DNA of 64,000 nt from Bacillota bacterium (lineage in GTDB: Bacteria > Bacillota > PH28-bin88), in the NCBI GenBank assembly GCA_040757295.1, contig JBFLXH010000009.1, positions 3,800 to 67,799 of the forward strand. The letters run 5' to 3'. Below, in pieces: positions 8,028-20,958 of this stretch; the first letter of the stretch is position 1; each line of letters starts with the position of its first letter. The translations under genes and the position numbers were made by a program. Below the pieces are notes generated by a model. That model was not told where the DNA came from and did not search any database. It was given only the letters and a program-made list of their open reading frames with translations.

Positions 8028-8657
8028 ATGCTTAACGGCAAAGACCAGAATTTTTATGAACGGCTCATCCTGTTGGATATTCCGGTTGGAATATCCAACA
8101 GGCATGTCCATTTGACCCAACAGGATCTGGATGAACTGTTCGGTCCCAACTATCAATTAGCTGTTTTTAAAGAGCTTTCTCAACCGGGAGAATTTGCCTC
8201 CCAAGAAGTGGTCACTCTTGTCGGCCCCCGGGGAGTGTTGGAGGGAGTCAGGATCCTTGGGCCTGCCCGTAACTACAGCCAGATTGAGATTTCCATGACC
8301 GATGCCTATCGAATTGGGTTGCGACCTCCGGTAAGGGATTCTGGGAAACTGGATGGTACTCCCGGCATTGCCATTGTCGGCCAAAAAGGCGCCCTTGCCT
8401 TGAAAAAAGGAGTAATATTGGCTGCCCGCCATATTCACATGAGTCCTGCCCACGCTAAAGAACTTGGAGTACAAAAGAGTGACAAAGTCCAGGTTTACGT
8501 TAACGGGGAGCGGGGCTGCATTTTAGAAAATGTACTGATTAGGGTCCACGAAAAATTTGTCCTGGAAATGCATATCGATACCGATGAAGCTAACTGCGCC
8601 CTGATCAAGAATGGTGATAAAGTACACATTGTCAGAAACGGCAGTGCCCTCTTGTGA
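8028..8657 (+). CDS. pduL: PduL-family phosphate acyltransferase (paralog 1)
   Basis: Two PduL repeats: 'GISNRHVHLTQQDLDELFG' and 'AARHIHMSPAHAKELGV'. 209 aa. Confidence 0.8.
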   Translation: MLNGKDQNFYERLILLDIPVGISNRHVHLTQQDLDELFGPNYQLAVFKELSQPGEFASQEVVTLVGPRGVLEGVRILGPARNYSQIEISMTDAYRIGLRPPVRDSGKLDGTPGIAIVGQKGALALKKGVILAARHIHMSPAHAKELGVQKSDKVQVYVNGERGCILENVLIRVHEKFVLEMHIDTDEANCALIKNGDKVHIVRNGSALL

Positions 8658-9753: not shown

Positions 9754-10342
9754 AAAGGCAAAAAGAATAAGGGGGATGAAGTATAATAGATCTATTAGCA
9801 TTTTTGCCTACTCACAGCGGCTTTTGTTCACAGTACTTCTCCGAAAACCAGAGAACTCTTTATGTCGTTTCTGATTAAAGAGATGAAATTGTATGATAAA
9901 TTTATGGAATACGGAAAAATAAAAGGATATAAAATTATGCCGCCTATCTATAGAGCTTAGGCATATTATTGTCATTATGACCAATAGCCCATGGCCCCCT
10001 GAAGAACGCTTATGCCCGTGGCTTTAACATACCTCGTTTCCCTGCCTCTGCTCAAACCTAATCTCTGCCAAGTCAGCCCGAGAAAGAGAATACCTAATCT
10101 TTCTTTGCCCCCATTTACTGCCATTTTTAGTGTTAAATATTGCCCTGTTTTACCTAATCTTAAATTCACCTTGAAAAAGGCATAGTACGGAATTTTTGCT
10201 TAGCCAGGCAATTTAGCTTTATTTATGCAAGAATTAGCACTCCCGCGGCATGAACTCCGTAAGCCGCCCCTTTCATCCCACCCCACAAGGAGATGAGTTT
10301 TCAAGGCCGGGTTTCTATAAATCGGATAAATCGGCAGGTTTG

Positions 10343-10406: not shown

Positions 10407-10862
10407 GTGCCAGCTTTACTAATTACGGCAGCAGTATTATTTTTTGATCAGCTAAGCAAATGGATTATTCAAGAGACCATGGAGCTTGGCCAATCCATCC
10501 CTGTAATAACCAATATTTTTCACATTACCTACTGGCGCAATCCGGGAGCTGCCTTCGGCATTATGGCCTTTCGGACTAATTTCTTTATTATCGTTGGTTT
10601 CCTGGTAGTAGCTGCCATTATAATAGTTTTACTGAGACTGCCTCCGGAAAGAAAGCTGCTCAAGGTGGCCCTAGCCCTGCAGTTGGGAGGCGCTGTCGGC
10701 AATCTAATCGATAGGATTCGCACCGGGTATGTGGTAGATTTTTTCGATTTCCGGGTTTGGCCTGTTTTCAATATAGCCGACAGCGCCATAGTTATTGGTG
10801 TAATACTCCTGTCATGGTTTCTCTTGGTGACTCCGGAAACAAAACCAAAACCCAATGGCTGA
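10407..10862 (+). CDS. lspA: Lipoprotein signal peptidase (signal peptidase II)
   Basis: LspA motifs 'FDQLSKW', 'NPGAAFG' and 'FNIADSAI'. GTG start after GGGGGAGAG. Confidence 0.9.
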
Positions 10863-12789: not shown

Positions 12790-13509
12790 ATGCAAATTGG
12801 TGTAGGAGTGTCTGCCAGGCACGTCCATCTATCCAAACAAGATCTGGATTGTTTATTCGGTTCCGGTTACCAACTACAGCCGGAACGATCCTTGTCTATT
12901 GCGACCCAATTTATTGCTAAAGAACGGCTGATATTAAGGGGTCCCAAGGGTGAATTGCGGAATGTGGCTGTAATTGGCCCGCCAAGACCCGAGACCCAGG
13001 TGGAGATAGCGAAATCCGATGGTTACGCCTTGGGGGTTATTCCTCCAACCCGTTTATCCGGTAATTTGCAGGGTTCGCCAGGCCTAACTCTGATTGGTCC
13101 CCAACAGGAAATAATTATTCAGGAGGGGTTAATTGCCGCCATGCGGCATATCCATATGACGGAAGCTGATGCCGGTGACCTGGGGTTTCAGCATAAAGAC
13201 TATGCTATGGTGGTTGTAAAAGGAGCCCGTTCTTTAGTCTTTGACTTTGTTGTGGTCAGGGTGGATCCAGCCAATACCCATACAGAATTTCACATTGATA
13301 CAGATGAGGCCAATGCCTCTGATTTGAAAACCGGCGATTTGGTGGAATTACTGCATGTTAATGATAAGAAACTCCGGCTGGAACAACTGATTAATATGTT
13401 TGATGAAAGGCAACTCAAAATGCTGGAACAATCGATTTCAGTCATTGTCCAGGACGAACGGAGACGCCTCACCATGATGGAGGATATGTTAAAGCTGCTG
13501 CAGAGGTAA
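12790..13509 (+). CDS. PduL-family phosphate acyltransferase (paralog 2, with ~45-aa C-terminal helical extension)
   Basis: 'GVGVSARHVHLSKQDLDCLFG' and 'AAMRHIHMTEADAGDLGF'. ATG 12790 after GGAGGGGGG; the ORF-track 12718 start is an over-extension. Confidence 0.8.
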   Translation: MQIGVGVSARHVHLSKQDLDCLFGSGYQLQPERSLSIATQFIAKERLILRGPKGELRNVAVIGPPRPETQVEIAKSDGYALGVIPPTRLSGNLQGSPGLTLIGPQQEIIIQEGLIAAMRHIHMTEADAGDLGFQHKDYAMVVVKGARSLVFDFVVVRVDPANTHTEFHIDTDEANASDLKTGDLVELLHVNDKKLRLEQLINMFDERQLKMLEQSISVIVQDERRRLTMMEDMLKLLQR

Positions 13510-14924: not shown

Positions 14925-15458
14925 ATGTCTTTTAATTTTACCTGTAAACTCCCTGAGCCAACTAACCAGAAGCTGAAGTATCTTGCCATCGAGTGGCTGC
15001 AAGAAAGGGGAGTAAACCTGGAAGATATTGCCGGTTTGGTTTATGAGATTCAAAAGCCCTATATCCCCAACCTTAGTATAGAAGACTGCTTTTGCAGCGT
15101 AGACAGGGTGATGGATAAGCGGGAAGTGCAAAACTCAATTTTTACCGGTCTTTCCCTGGATGAGCTGGCGGAAAAAGGGCTGATCCGGGAACCATTGCAA
15201 ACCATGATTAAAAAAGATGACGGGCTGTACGGGATTGACGAGATTCTAGCCTTGAGCATTGTTAATGTCTACGGTTCAATTGGTCTAACGAATTTTGGCT
15301 ATCTGGATAAAATAAAGCTTGGCATTATTAAAGAGCTGAATCAACACAGGAATAGGGTTATCAACACCTTTTTAGACGATATCGTGGCTGCAATCGCCGC
15401 CGCTGCTGCAGCAAGACTTGCCCATCAAACCAGGGATCAAGAGGAAAACCTGGCCTAA
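14925..15458 (+). CDS. PgpA-like / YutG-family protein (phosphatidylglycerophosphatase A homologue)
   Basis: 'GIDEILALSIVNVYGSIGLTNFGYLDK...FLDDIVAAIAAAAAARLAH' resembles the Bacillus YutG/PgpA family. Called from memory, not verified. Confidence 0.5.
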   Translation: MSFNFTCKLPEPTNQKLKYLAIEWLQERGVNLEDIAGLVYEIQKPYIPNLSIEDCFCSVDRVMDKREVQNSIFTGLSLDELAEKGLIREPLQTMIKKDDGLYGIDEILALSIVNVYGSIGLTNFGYLDKIKLGIIKELNQHRNRVINTFLDDIVAAIAAAAAARLAHQTRDQEENLA

Positions 15459-16338
15459 GCTATTTCAACAGGGGGCAGGCCTTGTGGGCAGAAAAAAGAA
15501 CAATCAATTAAATGATTTGAACGGGTCTCAGTGGCTTTATTGGACTGATAGCATTTACCTTACAAATTCCCCCCCTGATGTTACCCATTCCCTGCGGAAA
15601 AAGCATGGGGCAATGAAGCCGCCGGAAGTAATGGCTGATATTATCAGGTTTTTTACCAAAAAGGGGGAAACGGTGCTTGACCCTTTCGCCGGGGTAGGCG
15701 GGACTTTGCTAGGCGCTGCCTTGGCCGGGCGGCTTTCTCTTGGATTTGAACTTAACCCCCTTTGGGTAGATGTGTACAGGGAAATATGCCGCCGGTTTGT
15801 GGTACGGGGGGGAAAACTAGAGCCCAGGGAGTTACCTAATACAGGTCTAGGACCCCCTATAGATATTAACGGGGTCATGGAGCAGGGAGACTGCATGGCG
15901 CTCATGGCCCGATTACAGCCTCTTTCAATTGACGCAGTAATCACAGATCCTCCCTACGGTTGTCAGCATGGGGTTACGGGTTTCAAAGATGAAACAAACT
16001 TCAACATGTTCAACGGAGATGAACCCCTTGATTTTGCTAACGCAAAGAGCTTTGACGAGTACCTAGCCATGATGGCTTTGCTAGGAAAAGAAGTATGGCG
16101 GGTCTTAAAAGAAGGACGGTATTTTGTTCTGATTATCGGCGACCGTTACCAAAAAGGAGAATACATCCCCCTTGGCGCCATGGTTGGCCGGACAATGCAG
16201 GAGCAAGGGTTCAAGTTGAAAGGGATCAAGATTTGGTGCAACAAGGCAACCCAACGGCCATTAAAGCCATATGGCATAATGTCTGCTTTTGTTCCCAATA
16301 TTACTCATCAGAATATCGTAATCCTGCGCAAGCAATAA
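15418..16338 (+). CDS. PF01555-type DNA (N6-adenine/N4-cytosine) methyltransferase, orphan, permuted motif order
   Basis: 'SQWLYW..KKHGAMKPPEVMADIIRFFTKKGETVLDPFAGVGGTLLGAALAGRLSLGFELNP' is the HPTQKP-helix/motif I block. 'VITDPPYG' (motif IV) lies downstream. No adjacent restriction endonuclease. Confidence 0.8.
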   Translation: MPIKPGIKRKTWPKLFQQGAGLVGRKKNNQLNDLNGSQWLYWTDSIYLTNSPPDVTHSLRKKHGAMKPPEVMADIIRFFTKKGETVLDPFAGVGGTLLGAALAGRLSLGFELNPLWVDVYREICRRFVVRGGKLEPRELPNTGLGPPIDINGVMEQGDCMALMARLQPLSIDAVITDPPYGCQHGVTGFKDETNFNMFNGDEPLDFANAKSFDEYLAMMALLGKEVWRVLKEGRYFVLIIGDRYQKGEYIPLGAMVGRTMQEQGFKLKGIKIWCNKATQRPLKPYGIMSAFVPNITHQNIVILRKQ

Positions 16339-16353
16339 ATGGGGAGGGTCTAA

Positions 16354-17013
16354 ATGGATATCCATCAATTGGAAGGATTAATCAAAACCAGGCGGTCAAT
16401 TCGAAAATGGCAGCATCAGGCCATCCCTGATGCCTTGCTTGAGAAGGCATTAGAGCTGGCTACCTGGGCGCCTAACGGTGGAAATCATCAGCCGTGGCAT
16501 TTTTATGTGGTTAAAAGCAGGCCAGTCATCAATAGGATTGCTGATGCGGTCGAGGCCAAGACGGAACTAATGGCCGGGTGGCCCGAAGCCGATCCTCACC
16601 GTGAGACGGTGGATAAATGGAAAAAGACGGCAGCCTTTTTTCGTCAGGCCCCTGTGGTCATTGCGGTTACCGTCGGAGGATACCAGTCAATTACCGACAT
16701 TCTTGTTAACGCCAGAAAAGATTCTGATATTGCGGCCAGGGAGATTTTCGCCAATCGACAATTCTGCAGCACAAGAGTGCAGACTGCAGCCGCAGCTATT
16801 ACTCAAATGCTCTTAGCATTCCACCAGCTAGGACTGGGAGCCTGCTGGATGACTGGCCCGGTCCAGGCTAAACAGGAGATCGAAAAGATCCTGGGGGTTC
16901 CGCCGGACTGGGATTTTGTGGCATTAATCCCCGTTGGATTTCCCGGCGAACAGCCTGGGCCGCGAAACCGGAAACCTCTTTGCCAGATAATGACAATAAT
17001 TGATGGGAACTAA
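16354..17013 (+). CDS. Nitroreductase-family FMN oxidoreductase
   Basis: 'IKTRRSIRKWQHQAIPDALLEKALELATWAPNGGNHQPWHFYVV' is the classic nitroreductase N-terminus. Confidence 0.85.
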   Translation: MDIHQLEGLIKTRRSIRKWQHQAIPDALLEKALELATWAPNGGNHQPWHFYVVKSRPVINRIADAVEAKTELMAGWPEADPHRETVDKWKKTAAFFRQAPVVIAVTVGGYQSITDILVNARKDSDIAAREIFANRQFCSTRVQTAAAAITQMLLAFHQLGLGACWMTGPVQAKQEIEKILGVPPDWDFVALIPVGFPGEQPGPRNRKPLCQIMTIIDGN

Positions 17014-17047
17014 TACCTAGTAATCAATTTGGGAAAAAGCGGGGACT

Positions 17048-19099
17048 ATGTCGCAAGGTCTCCGCATTTTTTCCAAAAGCTTACAAAATTCCCGAAGGAA
17101 AACAGGAAGCTTTTGTCAAAAATATGCCCCAGCATTTGGGATAGACAAGAGATGTGGGGTGAAGGTTTTGAAGAAGCGAAAGGTGATTCGGGTACGGGTC
17201 AATGGTAGTCTGGACTCTTTAACTGACATGCTTAAATATTATTTGTACCAGCAGACTGGACAAACTGTGGATGACCTTGTTGCCAAGGTGCTTAGACGCA
17301 TGGTGACAAATCAAACTGTGTCTAAATTGGAAAAGCATGTCAGCCGGTGTTTGCATAAAAACCCCGCCTTTGATCAAGCTTCCAATAACCGGTGGCTATT
17401 AGACACCAGAGGGCAGAGGAGTAATGATCAACTGTACCAGTGGTTGCAAACAACAGGACAAGCCATGAATATTGCTGAGTTGAGGCTTAAGGCCCGGGAG
17501 AGGGGAATAGACCCCGAGCTTATCCAAGAAAAAGATCTGGTCACAGACAGCCGGTTTTTACGCTTAAAAACTGGAAAATGGGCTTTAATCCACTGGGAAA
17601 TCATCAGACAAGTCACCGGGAAGGAACTGGATAAGACGGCAGAGAAGCTGCGTATAACCAGGCAGCCTATGGCTGTAGAAGAGATCGCCCGCAATCTATT
17701 GGCTCACGGTGCGGAGGGGACCGATCTTTTAGCCTGCCTGCAGAAGGATCCCAGGTTCGCTTGGGTTGGTGGGCATCATTGGTATTTGAGGGAATTACTC
17801 CCAACCCCTGCTGACAGTGGTTCAGTAAGGGCCTTTGCCTTGGAACCCTTTCGCAAGGCTGAAACGGCTGCTTTAGGCGAAGCAGAGCTGATGTTAATTT
17901 TGAACGACACTGATCCCAACTGCCGCGAATATATCCTGTCCTCTATGGACTTGGAGCGAGGCTCCCTGAGGATTACTAAACGGATGGACAGGTTGTTTGC
18001 CGGTTTACCGCCAGTGGCTTGGATTTCTTTCGACACGCCGACTGGCCCTTTAGAGGCATGGTATCTCCGGATGGGCGGCTCTATCCTGGGTTTCAGCCAC
18101 TGGTTCCTACAAAACGGCCTTGAGCCCGGCAGTAAGCTCCGGATTAAACGGGTTATGGGAGAAGAGCGGATATTCAACATCGAAATTACTAGCGAGAGAG
18201 AGGCAGAGGTATTTACTGAGGGGTCCAGGGTGCGCAAACTGGAGGCTCTTTGGCGAAAGGACCAGACAGAAAATTATTCCTTAGATCAATTGCTTTTGGA
18301 GGTAATGGAACTGTTCCCTGCCGGATTGCCACAGGAGGAAGTAGCGCAAGTAATGACAGCTATTCGACCAGTTTCCCCGGACGAAATCGGGCGATTGTTG
18401 GAAAATACCCCATATTTTGAGCGGACAACTTCAGGTAATTGGCGCTTTAACCAGGCCATTTTCGAAGCTTATAATAAGCTGGCCCGAGAACTCTCCTTGG
18501 TTAGGGATGAAATATCCCGTTCCCAGCAGGAGATTGCTGCTGCCCTTCAGGAGAACCAGCAGCTAGTTATGGAAAAAGAGGGTCTGTACGGCGAATTAAT
18601 TTATCTAAAAAACCACCACCGGGATCAGGAGGCTCAACTGCAGGAAAAAATACGCCGTTTAAGGGACCAGTTGGAGGAATTGCAGCGGGAGCATGCCAGG
18701 ACCAGGGCCGAACTGGATAAACAGCTGAAACACCGGGATTGTCTCCAACAGGAAATGGAAAAGGCTAAACAACAGATTCAGACCCTCCGAGCGGAAAGAG
18801 ATAGTCTAAAGATAAAAGCAGAGCAGCTTGAATCAAGAACCTTACAGCTTCAGGGTAATTTAAGCCGATCGCGGGAAGAGATCGAGGAACAGCATTTGCG
18901 GGTGAACCAGCGGCTGAAGGAACTGGAGGCCAAGCTGCATAATTCGATCATTGCCAACGATGACCTTGAGCGAACAGTCGTTAAACTCCAGGAGGAACGA
19001 CGCTTGTTAAAACGCCGTATGAACCACTGGCTGGTACGCTGGGCTATTGCCATCACCTCCGGATGGCGCCGGAACGACAATAGCTTTTTGAAATCATAG
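17048..19099 (+). CDS. Large protein with four HARE-HTH-like winged-helix repeats and a ~200-aa C-terminal coiled coil
   Basis: Repeated 'x(D/N)xRFxxxxxGxWxL' units (NNRWLLDTRG; DSRFLRLKTGKWALIHW; DPRFAWVGGHHWYLREL; TPYFERTTSGNWRF) resemble the RNA polymerase delta N-terminal domain. Residues ~470-650 are heptad-rich (LQEKIRRLRDQLEELQREH...). Start codon uncertain (ATG 17048, GTG ~17158 or ATG ~17229). Confidence 0.55.
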   Translation: MSQGLRIFSKSLQNSRRKTGSFCQKYAPAFGIDKRCGVKVLKKRKVIRVRVNGSLDSLTDMLKYYLYQQTGQTVDDLVAKVLRRMVTNQTVSKLEKHVSRCLHKNPAFDQASNNRWLLDTRGQRSNDQLYQWLQTTGQAMNIAELRLKARERGIDPELIQEKDLVTDSRFLRLKTGKWALIHWEIIRQVTGKELDKTAEKLRITRQPMAVEEIARNLLAHGAEGTDLLACLQKDPRFAWVGGHHWYLRELLPTPADSGSVRAFALEPFRKAETAALGEAELMLILNDTDPNCREYILSSMDLERGSLRITKRMDRLFAGLPPVAWISFDTPTGPLEAWYLRMGGSILGFSHWFLQNGLEPGSKLRIKRVMGEERIFNIEITSEREAEVFTEGSRVRKLEALWRKDQTENYSLDQLLLEVMELFPAGLPQEEVAQVMTAIRPVSPDEIGRLLENTPYFERTTSGNWRFNQAIFEAYNKLARELSLVRDEISRSQQEIAAALQENQQLVMEKEGLYGELIYLKNHHRDQEAQLQEKIRRLRDQLEELQREHARTRAELDKQLKHRDCLQQEMEKAKQQIQTLRAERDSLKIKAEQLESRTLQLQGNLSRSREEIEEQHLRVNQRLKELEAKLHNSIIANDDLERTVVKLQEERRLLKRRMNHWLVRWAIAITSGWRRNDNSFLKS

Positions 19100-19158: not shown

Positions 19159-20958
19159 CTAGAGCTCTCCGGTAAGGATGATTCCCCCAAAACCTGGTAC
19201 CCGTGGCAGAGCCAGCTGATTGCCGGTAACCGGGTAGGAATAACCGGTGCTGCACTCTGAAAAAACAATGTCCGGCGGCACATGAGGCAGGGTGATCACT
19301 AGCCCGTGGTGCTCCTGGTGCCTGTTTAATACAACTAGGGCTATTTCCTGCTCGCTGCGCCTCAGATAACAGTAAAGTCCCCTGTTGTCATCAGCGAATA
19401 GCGTTTCAAAAGTGCCGGTTTTTAGGACTGGGTGCTTGTGCCTTGCAGCAATGAGGGTTTTATATAAGGAAAAGAGATCATGATCCTGGCGGTCCTTTTC
19501 CCAGACCATGGTGCCGCGGCAGCCTGGGTCCGGTCCCCCGGTCATTCCTACCTCATCGCCGTAATACACCATCGGTGCCCCAAGGTAAGTCATTTGAAAT
19601 ATAAGGGCGGGCCGCAAGCGGTCCTTTGCTGCCTGATATGCCTCTTCCTCTGTAAGCCCATGGGGCAGATGGTTGATGAACTCTGTGATAATCCTAGCTG
19701 TGTCGTGGCTTCCAAGGAGGTTGAGAAGGCAGCCATGAACCTGCTCCGGGTAGCGCAGGCGGATCAGGCCCAAAAGATAGTCAAAGGTCTGCAGACCAAT
19801 TCTGTTTTTTGCAAAACAGTCAATGACCAGGTCTCGGAAAAGATAATTCATAACCCCGTCGAACTGGTCACCCTGCAGCCAAGGCCTGCCATCCCGCCAT
19901 ATTTCGCCAACAATGTAGGTTTCAGGGTTAATCCCTTTTGCCACTTGGCGAAACTCCTGCCAAAACTCATGTTCCACTTCATTAGGCACATCAAGGCGCC
20001 AACCGTCTGCGCCTCTCTTAGTCCAGAAGGCGGCTGTCTCCAGTAAATATTTTCTCGTTTCTGGGTTTTTTACATTTAATTTGGGCAGGTCCGCAAAATC
20101 CCACCAACAGGCGTAGTTTGGCGGGTGTTTTGAAATCGGGTACCCGTAGATATAATACCAGTTTTTGTAGCGCGAGGCGTACCCATGCTGGACAATATCC
20201 TGAAAGGCCCAAAACTCATCACCGGTATGATTAAAAACACAATCCAGCACGAGTTTGATTTGGTGCTTCCGAAAGGTATCCACCAACTTATTAAAAGTGT
20301 CCATGTCTCCGAAATGGGGATCGATTTTCATGTAATCCATGGTATCATACTTGTGATTAGAGACCGAGGCAAAAATGGGATTCAGCCAAACAGCATTAAC
20401 CCCCAGTTCCACCAAATGATGAATTTTGGCTGCAATTCCCTGCAGGTCCCCACCAAAAAAATTGGTTCTGGTTGGTATTCCGCCCCAGGGTTCTGTTTTA
20501 GGTGGATCGTTACTGGGGTCCCCATTATAGAACCTTTCGGGAAAGATCTGGTAAAACACTGCCTCCTGAACCCAGTCCGGTACAACAAAAACCTGGTCAG
20601 GCTGCCAGGAGCCGCTAAAGGGCTGCAGGTTTTTCGGGAAGTCAGGCCCGGTTTCTACACCGCCAGAGCCGATCCAGTAACTGAAGCCGTCGGATACAAG
20701 TTGAAAAAGGTACTTAAGCTGAGGTTTGCTGGTAGTAACATAGGTTTGATAGTAAACAGACCTGGGGGTAGCAGCAAAGGGATACATAGTTTTGGGCTGC
20801 CAATCTCCATCCAAATACCAGACCTGGCAGGTTGCCTCGGTTTTCGGCCTGACCCGTAATTTAAGGGATACCGTATCGGGTTTAATCGGTTTAAAATATC
20901 GCTTAACTTGACGGTGATAAAACCGGTAGGGCAGTTTAAAGTCATCTTTTCTGTTCAA
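19159..20958 (-). CDS. GH13 alpha-amylase-family glycosidase (neopullulanase/cyclomaltodextrinase-like)
   Basis: GH13 catalytic regions 'DAVWLNPIF', 'GWRLDVPNEV', 'EIWRD' and 'FNHTGDEF'. 599 aa with an N-terminal E-set-like domain. Confidence 0.9.
   Translation of the reverse strand: MNRKDDFKLPYRFYHRQVKRYFKPIKPDTVSLKLRVRPKTEATCQVWYLDGDWQPKTMYPFAATPRSVYYQTYVTTSKPQLKYLFQLVSDGFSYWIGSGGVETGPDFPKNLQPFSGSWQPDQVFVVPDWVQEAVFYQIFPERFYNGDPSNDPPKTEPWGGIPTRTNFFGGDLQGIAAKIHHLVELGVNAVWLNPIFASVSNHKYDTMDYMKIDPHFGDMDTFNKLVDTFRKHQIKLVLDCVFNHTGDEFWAFQDIVQHGYASRYKNWYYIYGYPISKHPPNYACWWDFADLPKLNVKNPETRKYLLETAAFWTKRGADGWRLDVPNEVEHEFWQEFRQVAKGINPETYIVGEIWRDGRPWLQGDQFDGVMNYLFRDLVIDCFAKNRIGLQTFDYLLGLIRLRYPEQVHGCLLNLLGSHDTARIITEFINHLPHGLTEEEAYQAAKDRLRPALIFQMTYLGAPMVYYGDEVGMTGGPDPGCRGTMVWEKDRQDHDLFSLYKTLIAARHKHPVLKTGTFETLFADDNRGLYCYLRRSEQEIALVVLNRHQEHHGLVITLPHVPPDIVFSECSTGYSYPVTGNQLALPRVPGFGGIILTGEL

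Follow-up and report, generated by a model that had tools for sequence, protein, structure and literature searches.

The experimentally characterised relative of the locus described here comes from Moorella thermoacetica, of which every predicted methylase was cloned by Jensen et al. in 2019 (PMC6700114). One of these, MothHH_00927 (= Moth_0871), which was annotated as 'conserved hypothetical protein', gave CA(m6A)TC when present alone in Escherichia coli, i.e. N6-methyladenine (m6A) in CATC, with a mean quality value (QV) of 88.75, and this activity accounts for half of SATC, a motif methylated at 99.9% in the Moorella genome (PMC6700114). We analysed the corresponding region in a 64-kb stretch of a Bacillota contig (JBFLXH010000009.1), where four co-directional open reading frames (ORFs) span positions 14925-19099 of the forward strand; this whole stretch is referred to below as the window. 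The four genes encode a PgpA-family phosphatase, a DNA methyltransferase (hereafter the methylase), a nitroreductase-family flavoenzyme and a large coiled-coil protein (Table 1). An earlier note, made from the sequence alone, had recognised this co-directional arrangement and had proposed that the last three genes form an epigenetic-sensing or defence-like unit of a new type.

Our analysis makes it probable that the region is ordinary core chromosome of an uncultured, Moorella-related Bacillota metagenome-assembled genome (MAG), with four functionally independent genes. What had been proposed as a new system type is reduced to conserved gene order, and an enzyme of known site (CATC, m6A) provides, by orthology, an annotation for the methylase. 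The methylase would write a housekeeping m6A mark at CATC-type sites on chromosomal DNA, the nitroreductase would be an accessory flavoenzyme functionally independent of its neighbours, and the separately promoted protein of 643 amino acids (aa) would probably be a dimer binding DNA multivalently, with its tail possibly at the membrane.

The methylase, its permuted motifs and its substrate

The methylase matches PF01555 with 86.2 bits (gathering cut-off 26.7), and the swapped order of its motifs, both of which had been claimed before, is borne out by the Pfam and PDB alignments. Residues 36-115 are covered by the C-terminal part of the PF01555 profile (positions 133-214), and its DPPY part follows further downstream. 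Similarly, residues 54-127 align to residues 207-280 of 2zie and residues 156-266 to residues 26-129, i.e. in reversed order, and the halves are likewise swapped with respect to the solved beta-class enzymes TTHA0409 and CcrM. The layout comprises an HxxMKP block, motif I, which binds S-adenosylmethionine (AdoMet), a variable loop, motif IV and a conserved C-terminal block; it is not the beta-class order of motif IV, target-recognition region and motif I. Judged by these alignments, the circular permutation relative to the beta-class enzymes is real. The permuted topology is not unprecedented, and the Type II models derived from REBASE in PADLOC are colinear with the whole methylase (PDLC03391, residues 6-283).

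The start of the gene was placed at GTG 15484 because the N-termini of 13 homologues, which begin at the equivalent position, the deposited annotation (a 284-aa protein with a 100% match) and an AGGGGG ribosome-binding site 9 nt upstream all agree. The longest ORF begins at TTG 15418 (15418-16338), and the overlap with the upstream gene that had been noted earlier is an artefact of this longer frame; the GTG codon lies 25 nt after pgpA.

The syntenic Moorella gene Moth_0871 encodes a protein with 62% identity to the methylase over 92% of its length, and is found in the corresponding segment of the chromosome, near 896 kb of CP012370. That MothHH_00927 is the methylase orthologue follows from its published cloning primers, which map to this Moorella gene: the gene-specific part of the reverse primer exactly matches positions 10825-10846 of the Moorella locus (L091), and the forward primer matches positions 10001-10018 except for an engineered change from GTG to ATG. 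Based on the m6A data from Moorella DNA and on this mapping, the family is a genuine N6-adenine DNA methyltransferase family. The window methylase most likely targets the adenine of CATC, or of a very similar short site, using AdoMet, as far as orthology can tell. CATC itself is neither avoided nor enriched in the window (observed/expected 1.03), which is uninformative in this respect.

That the enzyme is a housekeeping methyltransferase of tRNA or rRNA, of the Trm11/UPF0020 type and with the activity on DNA in E. coli as a side activity, has to be considered; the earlier note had itself raised such an identity. The top Foldseek matches are indeed Trm11 (E 6e-10) and an archaeal rRNA m4,2C synthase of the UPF0020 family, PF01170 is matched at a borderline 23.7 bits (cut-off 22.3), the DPPYG motif is present, some records bear the NCBI name 'TRM11 family', and the gene lies near rluD with a distribution that looks vertically conserved. 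However, Trm11 ranks first because Foldseek requires a colinear alignment, and beta-class enzymes align over half of the length only; the 'TRM11 family' label is therefore probably misleading, an artefact of shared topology. The best sequence matches are DNA methylases (PF01555; TTHA0409, CcrM and M.RsrI in the PDB), TIGR01177 stays far below its cut-off (29.7 against 316.6), and neither a THUMP domain nor another RNA-binding domain was found in the methylase. Above all, the Moorella orthologue methylates CATC in DNA, giving a clean m6A signal which explains a motif that is almost completely methylated natively. An RNA methylase identity is thus very unlikely, and RNA may be an additional substrate beside DNA.

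No cognate endonuclease is encoded near the methylase in the window or in Moorella, so the locus is not a Type II restriction-modification system, and the methylase is an orphan, or solitary, enzyme, as had been stated in the earlier note. This lack of a cognate nuclease argues for a writer of a housekeeping epigenetic mark rather than for one half of a restriction system. The family is large (more than 5,800 homologues) and unusually conserved: many residues are invariant, and Moorella and Calderihabitans members are about 60% identical. Identity drops as taxonomic distance grows; members are present in Chloroflexota, Planctomycetota, Dormibacterota, Spirochaetes, Halobacteria and one Asgard MAG. 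A housekeeping epigenetic function can reasonably be proposed for a vertically inherited, solitary adenine methylase of the core genome that occurs across Bacillota, Chloroflexota, Planctomycetota and haloarchaea. Our literature search on CATC orphan methylases returned nothing relevant beyond the Moorella paper (PMC6700114), and no study addressing a housekeeping epigenetic role of such a widespread solitary adenine methylase.

Two further observations concern this family. The highly conserved stretches GF..ETNF.M (residues 162-174, after DPPYG) and RPLKPYA...FVPN (residues 258-274) are the least confident parts of the AlphaFold2 model, with a predicted local distance difference test (pLDDT) score below 50; these residues are candidates for loops that would become ordered on DNA and set the CATC specificity. 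Within this one orthologous family, the names 'DNA methyltransferase', 'TRM11 family SAM-dependent methyltransferase', 'hypothetical protein' and 'DNA methylase N-4/N-6' are all in use.

Gene order and co-conservation at the locus

The window sequence is identical to contig JBMOOT010000053.1 of the Bacillota MAG GCA_049323775.1, and the region exhibits the same GC content as its flanks (0.475-0.497). Around the methylase, the genes in or flanking the region encode Hsp33, PgpA, the nitroreductase, the winged-helix/B3/coiled-coil protein and an amylase. The segment follows the order ileS-PTAC-DUF5665-dksA-lspA-rluD-DUF2007...methylase...large protein...ABC-ABC2...pyr, which is common to M. thermoacetica, L089 and L101 (the latter without the methylase). 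The gaps measure 25 nt between pgpA and the methylase gene, 15 nt (not 16 nt, as noted earlier) between the methylase and nitroreductase genes, and 154 nt between the nitroreductase gene and the large gene. As the first two gaps are so short and no terminator is predicted between these genes, pgpA, the methylase gene and the nitroreductase gene are probably co-transcribed.

Twelve lineages could be compared from the side of the large protein, a small number since the metagenome scan for its loci gave six loci. The methylase gene is near the large gene in five of them. The order is pgpA-methylase-nitroreductase-large in the window and in its 86% identical relative L095, pgpA-methylase-Fer4-AFOR-large in L088 (AFOR, aldehyde:ferredoxin oxidoreductase), pgpA-methylase-large in L089, and methylase-Mem_trans-short form of the large protein in Moorella. 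The other seven lack a nearby methylase gene: in L085, L086, L087, L097, L098 and L102 it is absent within about 5-10 kb of the large gene, and L101 exhibits the order ileS-...-rluD-DUF2007-pgpA-large-...-pyrR, with neither the methylase nor the nitroreductase in the corresponding segment. Accordingly, pgpA lies directly 5' of the methylase gene in L095, L088 and L089, and directly 5' of the large gene in L101.

From the side of the methylase, 80 GTDB loci from other phyla and other Bacillota, together with L090, were searched within 10 kb by BLASTP and with a hidden Markov model of the N-terminal 470 alignment columns of the large protein. The large protein, the nitroreductase and pgpA were found at none of the 80 loci, nor at L090, and de novo clustering of the neighbours at the 80 loci gave no universal partner gene, only clade-local synteny in Chloroflexota.

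The space between the methylase gene and the large gene (16339-17167 in the window, 1560-4509 in L088, 7847-8095 in L089, 10847-11881 in Moorella) carries a nitroreductase gene in the window and L095, Fer4 and AFOR genes in L088, nothing in L089, and the Mem_trans gene of an AEC-family permease in Moorella. It looks like a local hotspot of gene gain and loss within otherwise conserved synteny, and the nitroreductase, which is confined to the window, L001, L002 and L095, is by its distribution lineage-specific cargo of this variable slot. Since the nitroreductase sits in a variable slot and the large gene often occurs without the methylase gene, a three-gene module is unsupported; the three genes do not co-occur across lineages. 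The proximity of the methylase gene and the large gene is limited to one clade and Moorella, within the conserved rluD-to-pyr segment. This pattern is as inherited gene order predicts, and not as an obligate module predicts. An alpha-amylase/neopullulanase-family gene is convergent after the large gene in four lineages (window, L085, L086 and L095), two of which have no methylase gene there. This adjacency is nearly as conserved as that of the methylase (four lineages against five), which illustrates that proximity at this locus reflects synteny.

A novel three-gene defence or restriction-like system, in which the methylase marks self DNA, the large protein senses and the nitroreductase is the effector, would fit genes that are co-directional and closely packed, one of them encoding a DNA methylase, and a large protein with DNA-reading domains of kinds also known from restriction enzymes. 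Nevertheless, nuclease, ATPase and toxin domains are absent from all three proteins, and the nitroreductase is not retained along with the other two. The genes also exhibit a core-genome location, conserved synteny and unremarkable composition, and CATC is not avoided in the window. A scan with the PADLOC-DB v2 models gave no system match nearby, only generic Type II methyltransferase models; PgpA and the nitroreductase had no match, and the large protein matched only the coiled-coil-type LmuB and JetC models, with E 4e-6 or weaker. As PADLOC gave nothing past the generic methylase models, the defence reading was rejected, and we regard such a system as extremely unlikely. The earlier proposal of a three-gene sensing or defence unit is thus not supported, whereas its identification of the nitroreductase-family flavoenzyme is confirmed.

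A link to cobamide metabolism, with PgpA related to CobZ and the nitroreductase to BluB, was also tried and rejected. PgpA scored far under the cut-offs of the CobZ and CbiS NCBIfam models, and the nitroreductase, whose nearest solved structure is the BluB-like flavoprotein 3eo8, scored 77.8 with the BluB equivalog model against a cut-off of 150; moreover, the genes are not co-conserved.

Several points weigh against core chromosome with four independent genes as the explanation of this region. The loop between motifs I and IV of the methylase differs from that of the Moorella enzyme, and CATC for the window copy is deduced from orthology. The best colinear structural neighbour of the methylase is the tRNA m2G methylase Trm11, and some database records carry the corresponding family name. 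The first three genes are tightly packed, with no predicted terminators between them. Finally, in five lineages, Moorella among them, the methylase gene has the large gene in its vicinity, and this proximity could reflect more than inherited gene order; the Moorella large protein aligns over two segments only (39% and 38% identity).

With regard to the surrounding segment, it contains two paralogues of a PduL-type phosphotransacylase (PF06130), at 8028-8657 (after ileS) and 12790-13509 (after rluD) in the window. The duplication is shared by L089 (1109-1726 and 4324-5043), and the Moorella locus exhibits the ileS-proximal copy only, within the 20 kb read. In L087 (8252-9686) and L102 (10999-12439), the large gene is located not in the rluD-pyr segment, but beside a DUF881 gene pair and cdaA-ybbR-glmM, the operon of the c-di-AMP (cyclic di-adenosine monophosphate) synthase.

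Table 1. Positions of the genes, protein motifs and domains, and the upstream element in the window.
Feature	Position	Strand	Basis
PgpA-family phosphatase gene, 177 aa	14925..15458	+	PF04608, 78.1 bits (cut-off 28)
Solitary Type II N6-adenine DNA methyltransferase gene, 284 aa, GTG start	15484..16338	+	Permuted PF01555; orthologue of Moth_0871
HGAMKPPE, counterpart of beta-class HPTQKP, N-terminal to motif I	15604..15627	+	Invariant in 13 family members
FAGVGG, AdoMet-binding motif I, residues 68-73	15685..15702	+	Invariant in 13 homologues
DPPYG, catalytic motif IV, residues 155-159, downstream of motif I	15946..15960	+	Invariant in 13 homologues
Nitroreductase-family flavoenzyme gene, 219 aa	16354..17013	+	PF00881, 125.6 bits (cut-off 23.5)
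Promoter- or operator-like element of the large gene	17086..17123	+	Conserved in 11 of 11 loci examined
Gene of large, predicted DNA-binding coiled-coil protein, 643 aa, TTG start, uncharacterised family	17168..19099	+	
Three tandem HARE-HTH-like winged helices, residues 18-78, 84-140 and 151-207	17219..17788	+	AlphaFold2 model
B3-like DNA-binding pseudobarrel, residues 252-344	17921..18199	+	AlphaFold2 model, fold match
Fourth HARE-HTH-like winged helix, residues 372-427	18281..18448	+	AlphaFold2 model; hhalign 84%; weak AbiEi_3 Pfam match, E 0.007
Single helix of about 190 residues (429-617), predicted coiled coil	18452..19018	+	AlphaFold2 model; coiled-coil-type matches only, to SMC, Rad50, LmuB and JetC models
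C-terminal tail: short hydrophobic helix (WLVRWAIAITSGW), then basic residues	19019..19096	+	Low-confidence helix, residues 621-630
Alpha-amylase/neopullulanase-family gene, adjoining the 3' side of the large gene	19159..20958	-	Convergent with the large gene

The large protein and its upstream element

The large-protein family and its wider superfamily are wholly uncharacterised and exhibit an unusual domain combination; this family is the most interesting feature of the region. The homologues begin at the position equivalent to TTG 17168. The longest ORF begins at ATG 17048 (17048-19099), and its 5' extension is spurious, so that the 683 aa and the 35-nt gap given in the earlier note have to be replaced by the values stated above.

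No Pfam family is matched by the large protein over its cut-off, and a sequence search of the PDB returned coiled-coil noise only. An AlphaFold2 model was therefore built on 12 homologues, with a pLDDT of about 90 over residues 10-450. Its winged-helix units follow the order helix-helix-helix-strand-strand. HARE-HTH is the commonest sub-threshold Pfam match in the family (nine of 12 members at E<=1, best E 3e-4), although the window protein scores 15.6 bits with PF05066 against a gathering cut-off of 25.9, and the NCBIfam model of the RNA polymerase delta subunit matches unit 2 with E 2e-6. Aligned by hhalign to a bona fide HARE-HTH profile, units 1 to 4 gave probabilities of 85, 95, 96 and 84%, respectively, against 1.9% for a beta-domain control; the target profile was the HARE-HTH region of a family of relatives of about 615 aa, two checked members of which pass the Pfam cut-off. 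Because the sub-threshold Pfam matches, the delta-model match and the comparison with the control agree, the four HARE-HTH-like units are confirmed by profile-profile and fold similarity, and so is the long coiled coil, both as the earlier note had described them.

The B3-like beta-barrel, for which residues 252-344 match the fold of solved structures, and the short hydrophobic C-terminal helix had been missed in the earlier note. In the tail, the pattern W-x-V-[RK]-hydrophobic(10)-[RK][RK] is kept in 12 homologues, and this conserved hydrophobic-then-basic arrangement suggests possible membrane targeting or association. The large protein would be a dimeric, multivalent DNA-binding scaffold or tether.

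About 12 clusters (50% identity) with the full architecture were found by an exhaustive profile search. The module comprising the B3-like barrel and the fourth winged helix (17921-18448 in the window) recurs in unannotated metagenome proteins (P0147-P0283) of either about 615 aa or 1,100-1,460 aa; some of the shorter ones carry a Pfam-significant HARE-HTH domain, and the longer ones lack any Pfam match. The Moorella homologue is a short form without the third winged helix, the B3-like barrel and the fourth winged helix. As the architecture joins two domain types otherwise tied to restriction enzymes and chromatin readers, the large protein is a worthwhile target in itself.

Upstream of the large gene, within the spurious 5' extension of the longer ORF, the window exhibits TTTCCCGAAGGAAAA, a 12-nt spacer and then GTCAAAAAT. 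The consensus is TTTCCCGAAGGAww, located about 75-80 nt 5' of the start codon, followed by an invariant 12-nt non-conserved spacer and R(T/G)C(T/A)AAy; often an extra (TTA)GACAAAAG box is present about 10 nt further upstream. In all 11 loci examined (window, L095, L088, L089, L085, L086, L087, L091, L096, L097 and L098), whose proteins go down to 32% identity, the element keeps a constant distance to the start codon, and the composite pattern occurs once in the 64 kb of the window against 0.06 expected. The central part of the element is an imperfect inverted repeat (TTTCC-N4-GGAAA). No Rfam family matches the element, and its reading as an RNA element was rejected.

With its two conserved boxes a fixed distance apart, the element resembles a promoter. 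The Bacillus subtilis SigH consensus is RnAGGAwWW-N11-12-RnnGAATww; we take the -35 box and the spacing of the element to fit this type and the -10 box to fit it only partly, and the boxes presumably also resemble Spo0A boxes. The element does show that the large gene has a conserved control region of its own, so the large gene would be a separate transcription unit; its expression may fall in the transition phase or at the onset of sporulation.

A writer-reader pair, with the methylase as writer of C-m6A-TC and the large protein as reader of the mark, its absence or its hemimethylation via the HARE-HTH or B3 domains, as in Dam/SeqA and with the nitroreductase irrelevant, has to be weighed at this point. 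The genes are adjacent or near-adjacent in five lineages including Moorella, and a role in reading DNA modifications has been suggested for HARE-HTH domains; prokaryotic winged helices sense 6mA in the 6mApT context (PMC11037411), which C-m6A-TC contains, and B3-like domains read sequence in the restriction enzymes LlaJI.R1 and BfiI. However, the large gene stands without a nearby methylase gene in more than half of its lineages, L101 above all, where the synteny is the same and pgpA is followed by the large gene. The methylase family is much more widespread than that of the large protein, with no large protein within 10 kb at any of the 80 methylase loci; a variable slot separates the two genes, the large gene is preceded by a conserved element of its own, and the Moorella protein lacks three of the putative DNA-reading domains. 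In addition, HARE-HTH is tied more likely to cytosine modification, itself a prediction (PMC11037411). Such a pair is therefore unlikely.

Independent genes thus remain the preferred explanation. A more speculative role can be drawn for the large protein, whose expression from the conserved SigH/Spo0A-like promoter would let it tether or organise the chromosome as cells enter stationary phase or begin to sporulate; where the methylase adjoins, it would distinguish methylated, hemimethylated and unmethylated CATC, as a Firmicute analogue of Dam/SeqA or RacA. We hold this to be quite improbable.

Comparison with known systems

The large protein differs from known HARE-HTH proteins (PF05066; N-terminal domain of the RpoE delta subunit) in having four copies of the domain, no acidic tail, and a fused B3-like barrel and coiled coil. 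With respect to the B3/EcoRII-N/BfiI-C/LlaJI.R1-N pseudobarrels, its barrel differs in lacking detectable sequence similarity and an associated nuclease domain. Dam and CcrM resemble the methylase as solitary methylases of the core genome, and RacA resembles the large protein as a DNA-binding head with a coiled coil; the promoter of the large gene, with a -35 box and spacing that we assume to be of the SigH type, adds to the latter comparison. These likenesses are functional analogies only, as Dam, SeqA and RacA have no homology to the window proteins.

With regard to the Trm11/UPF0020 m2G RNA methyltransferases, the colinear topology, with motif I followed by DPPYG, is shared. In contrast to these, the window methylase has no THUMP domain, its orthologue acts on DNA, and it carries an HxxxKP block typical of DNA methylases. 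The beta-class PF01555 enzymes (TTHA0409, CcrM, M.RsrI and M.MboIIA) share the HxxxKP, FxGxG and DPPY motifs and the AdoMet fold, whereas the window methylase is a small protein and is circularly permuted, with motif I before motif IV. Its conserved N- and C-terminal blocks probably replace a discrete target-recognition domain.

The closest likeness is that to Moth_0871, which exhibits the same permuted motif order, is located downstream of rluD and upstream of a large-protein homologue and an ABC transporter, and has no nuclease partner. The two loci differ in their immediate neighbours, which are a DUF2007-like gene and Mem_trans in Moorella, and pgpA and the nitroreductase gene in the window. 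No new mechanism is evident in the region, and the window methylase belongs to a family in which one orthologue has been characterised experimentally.

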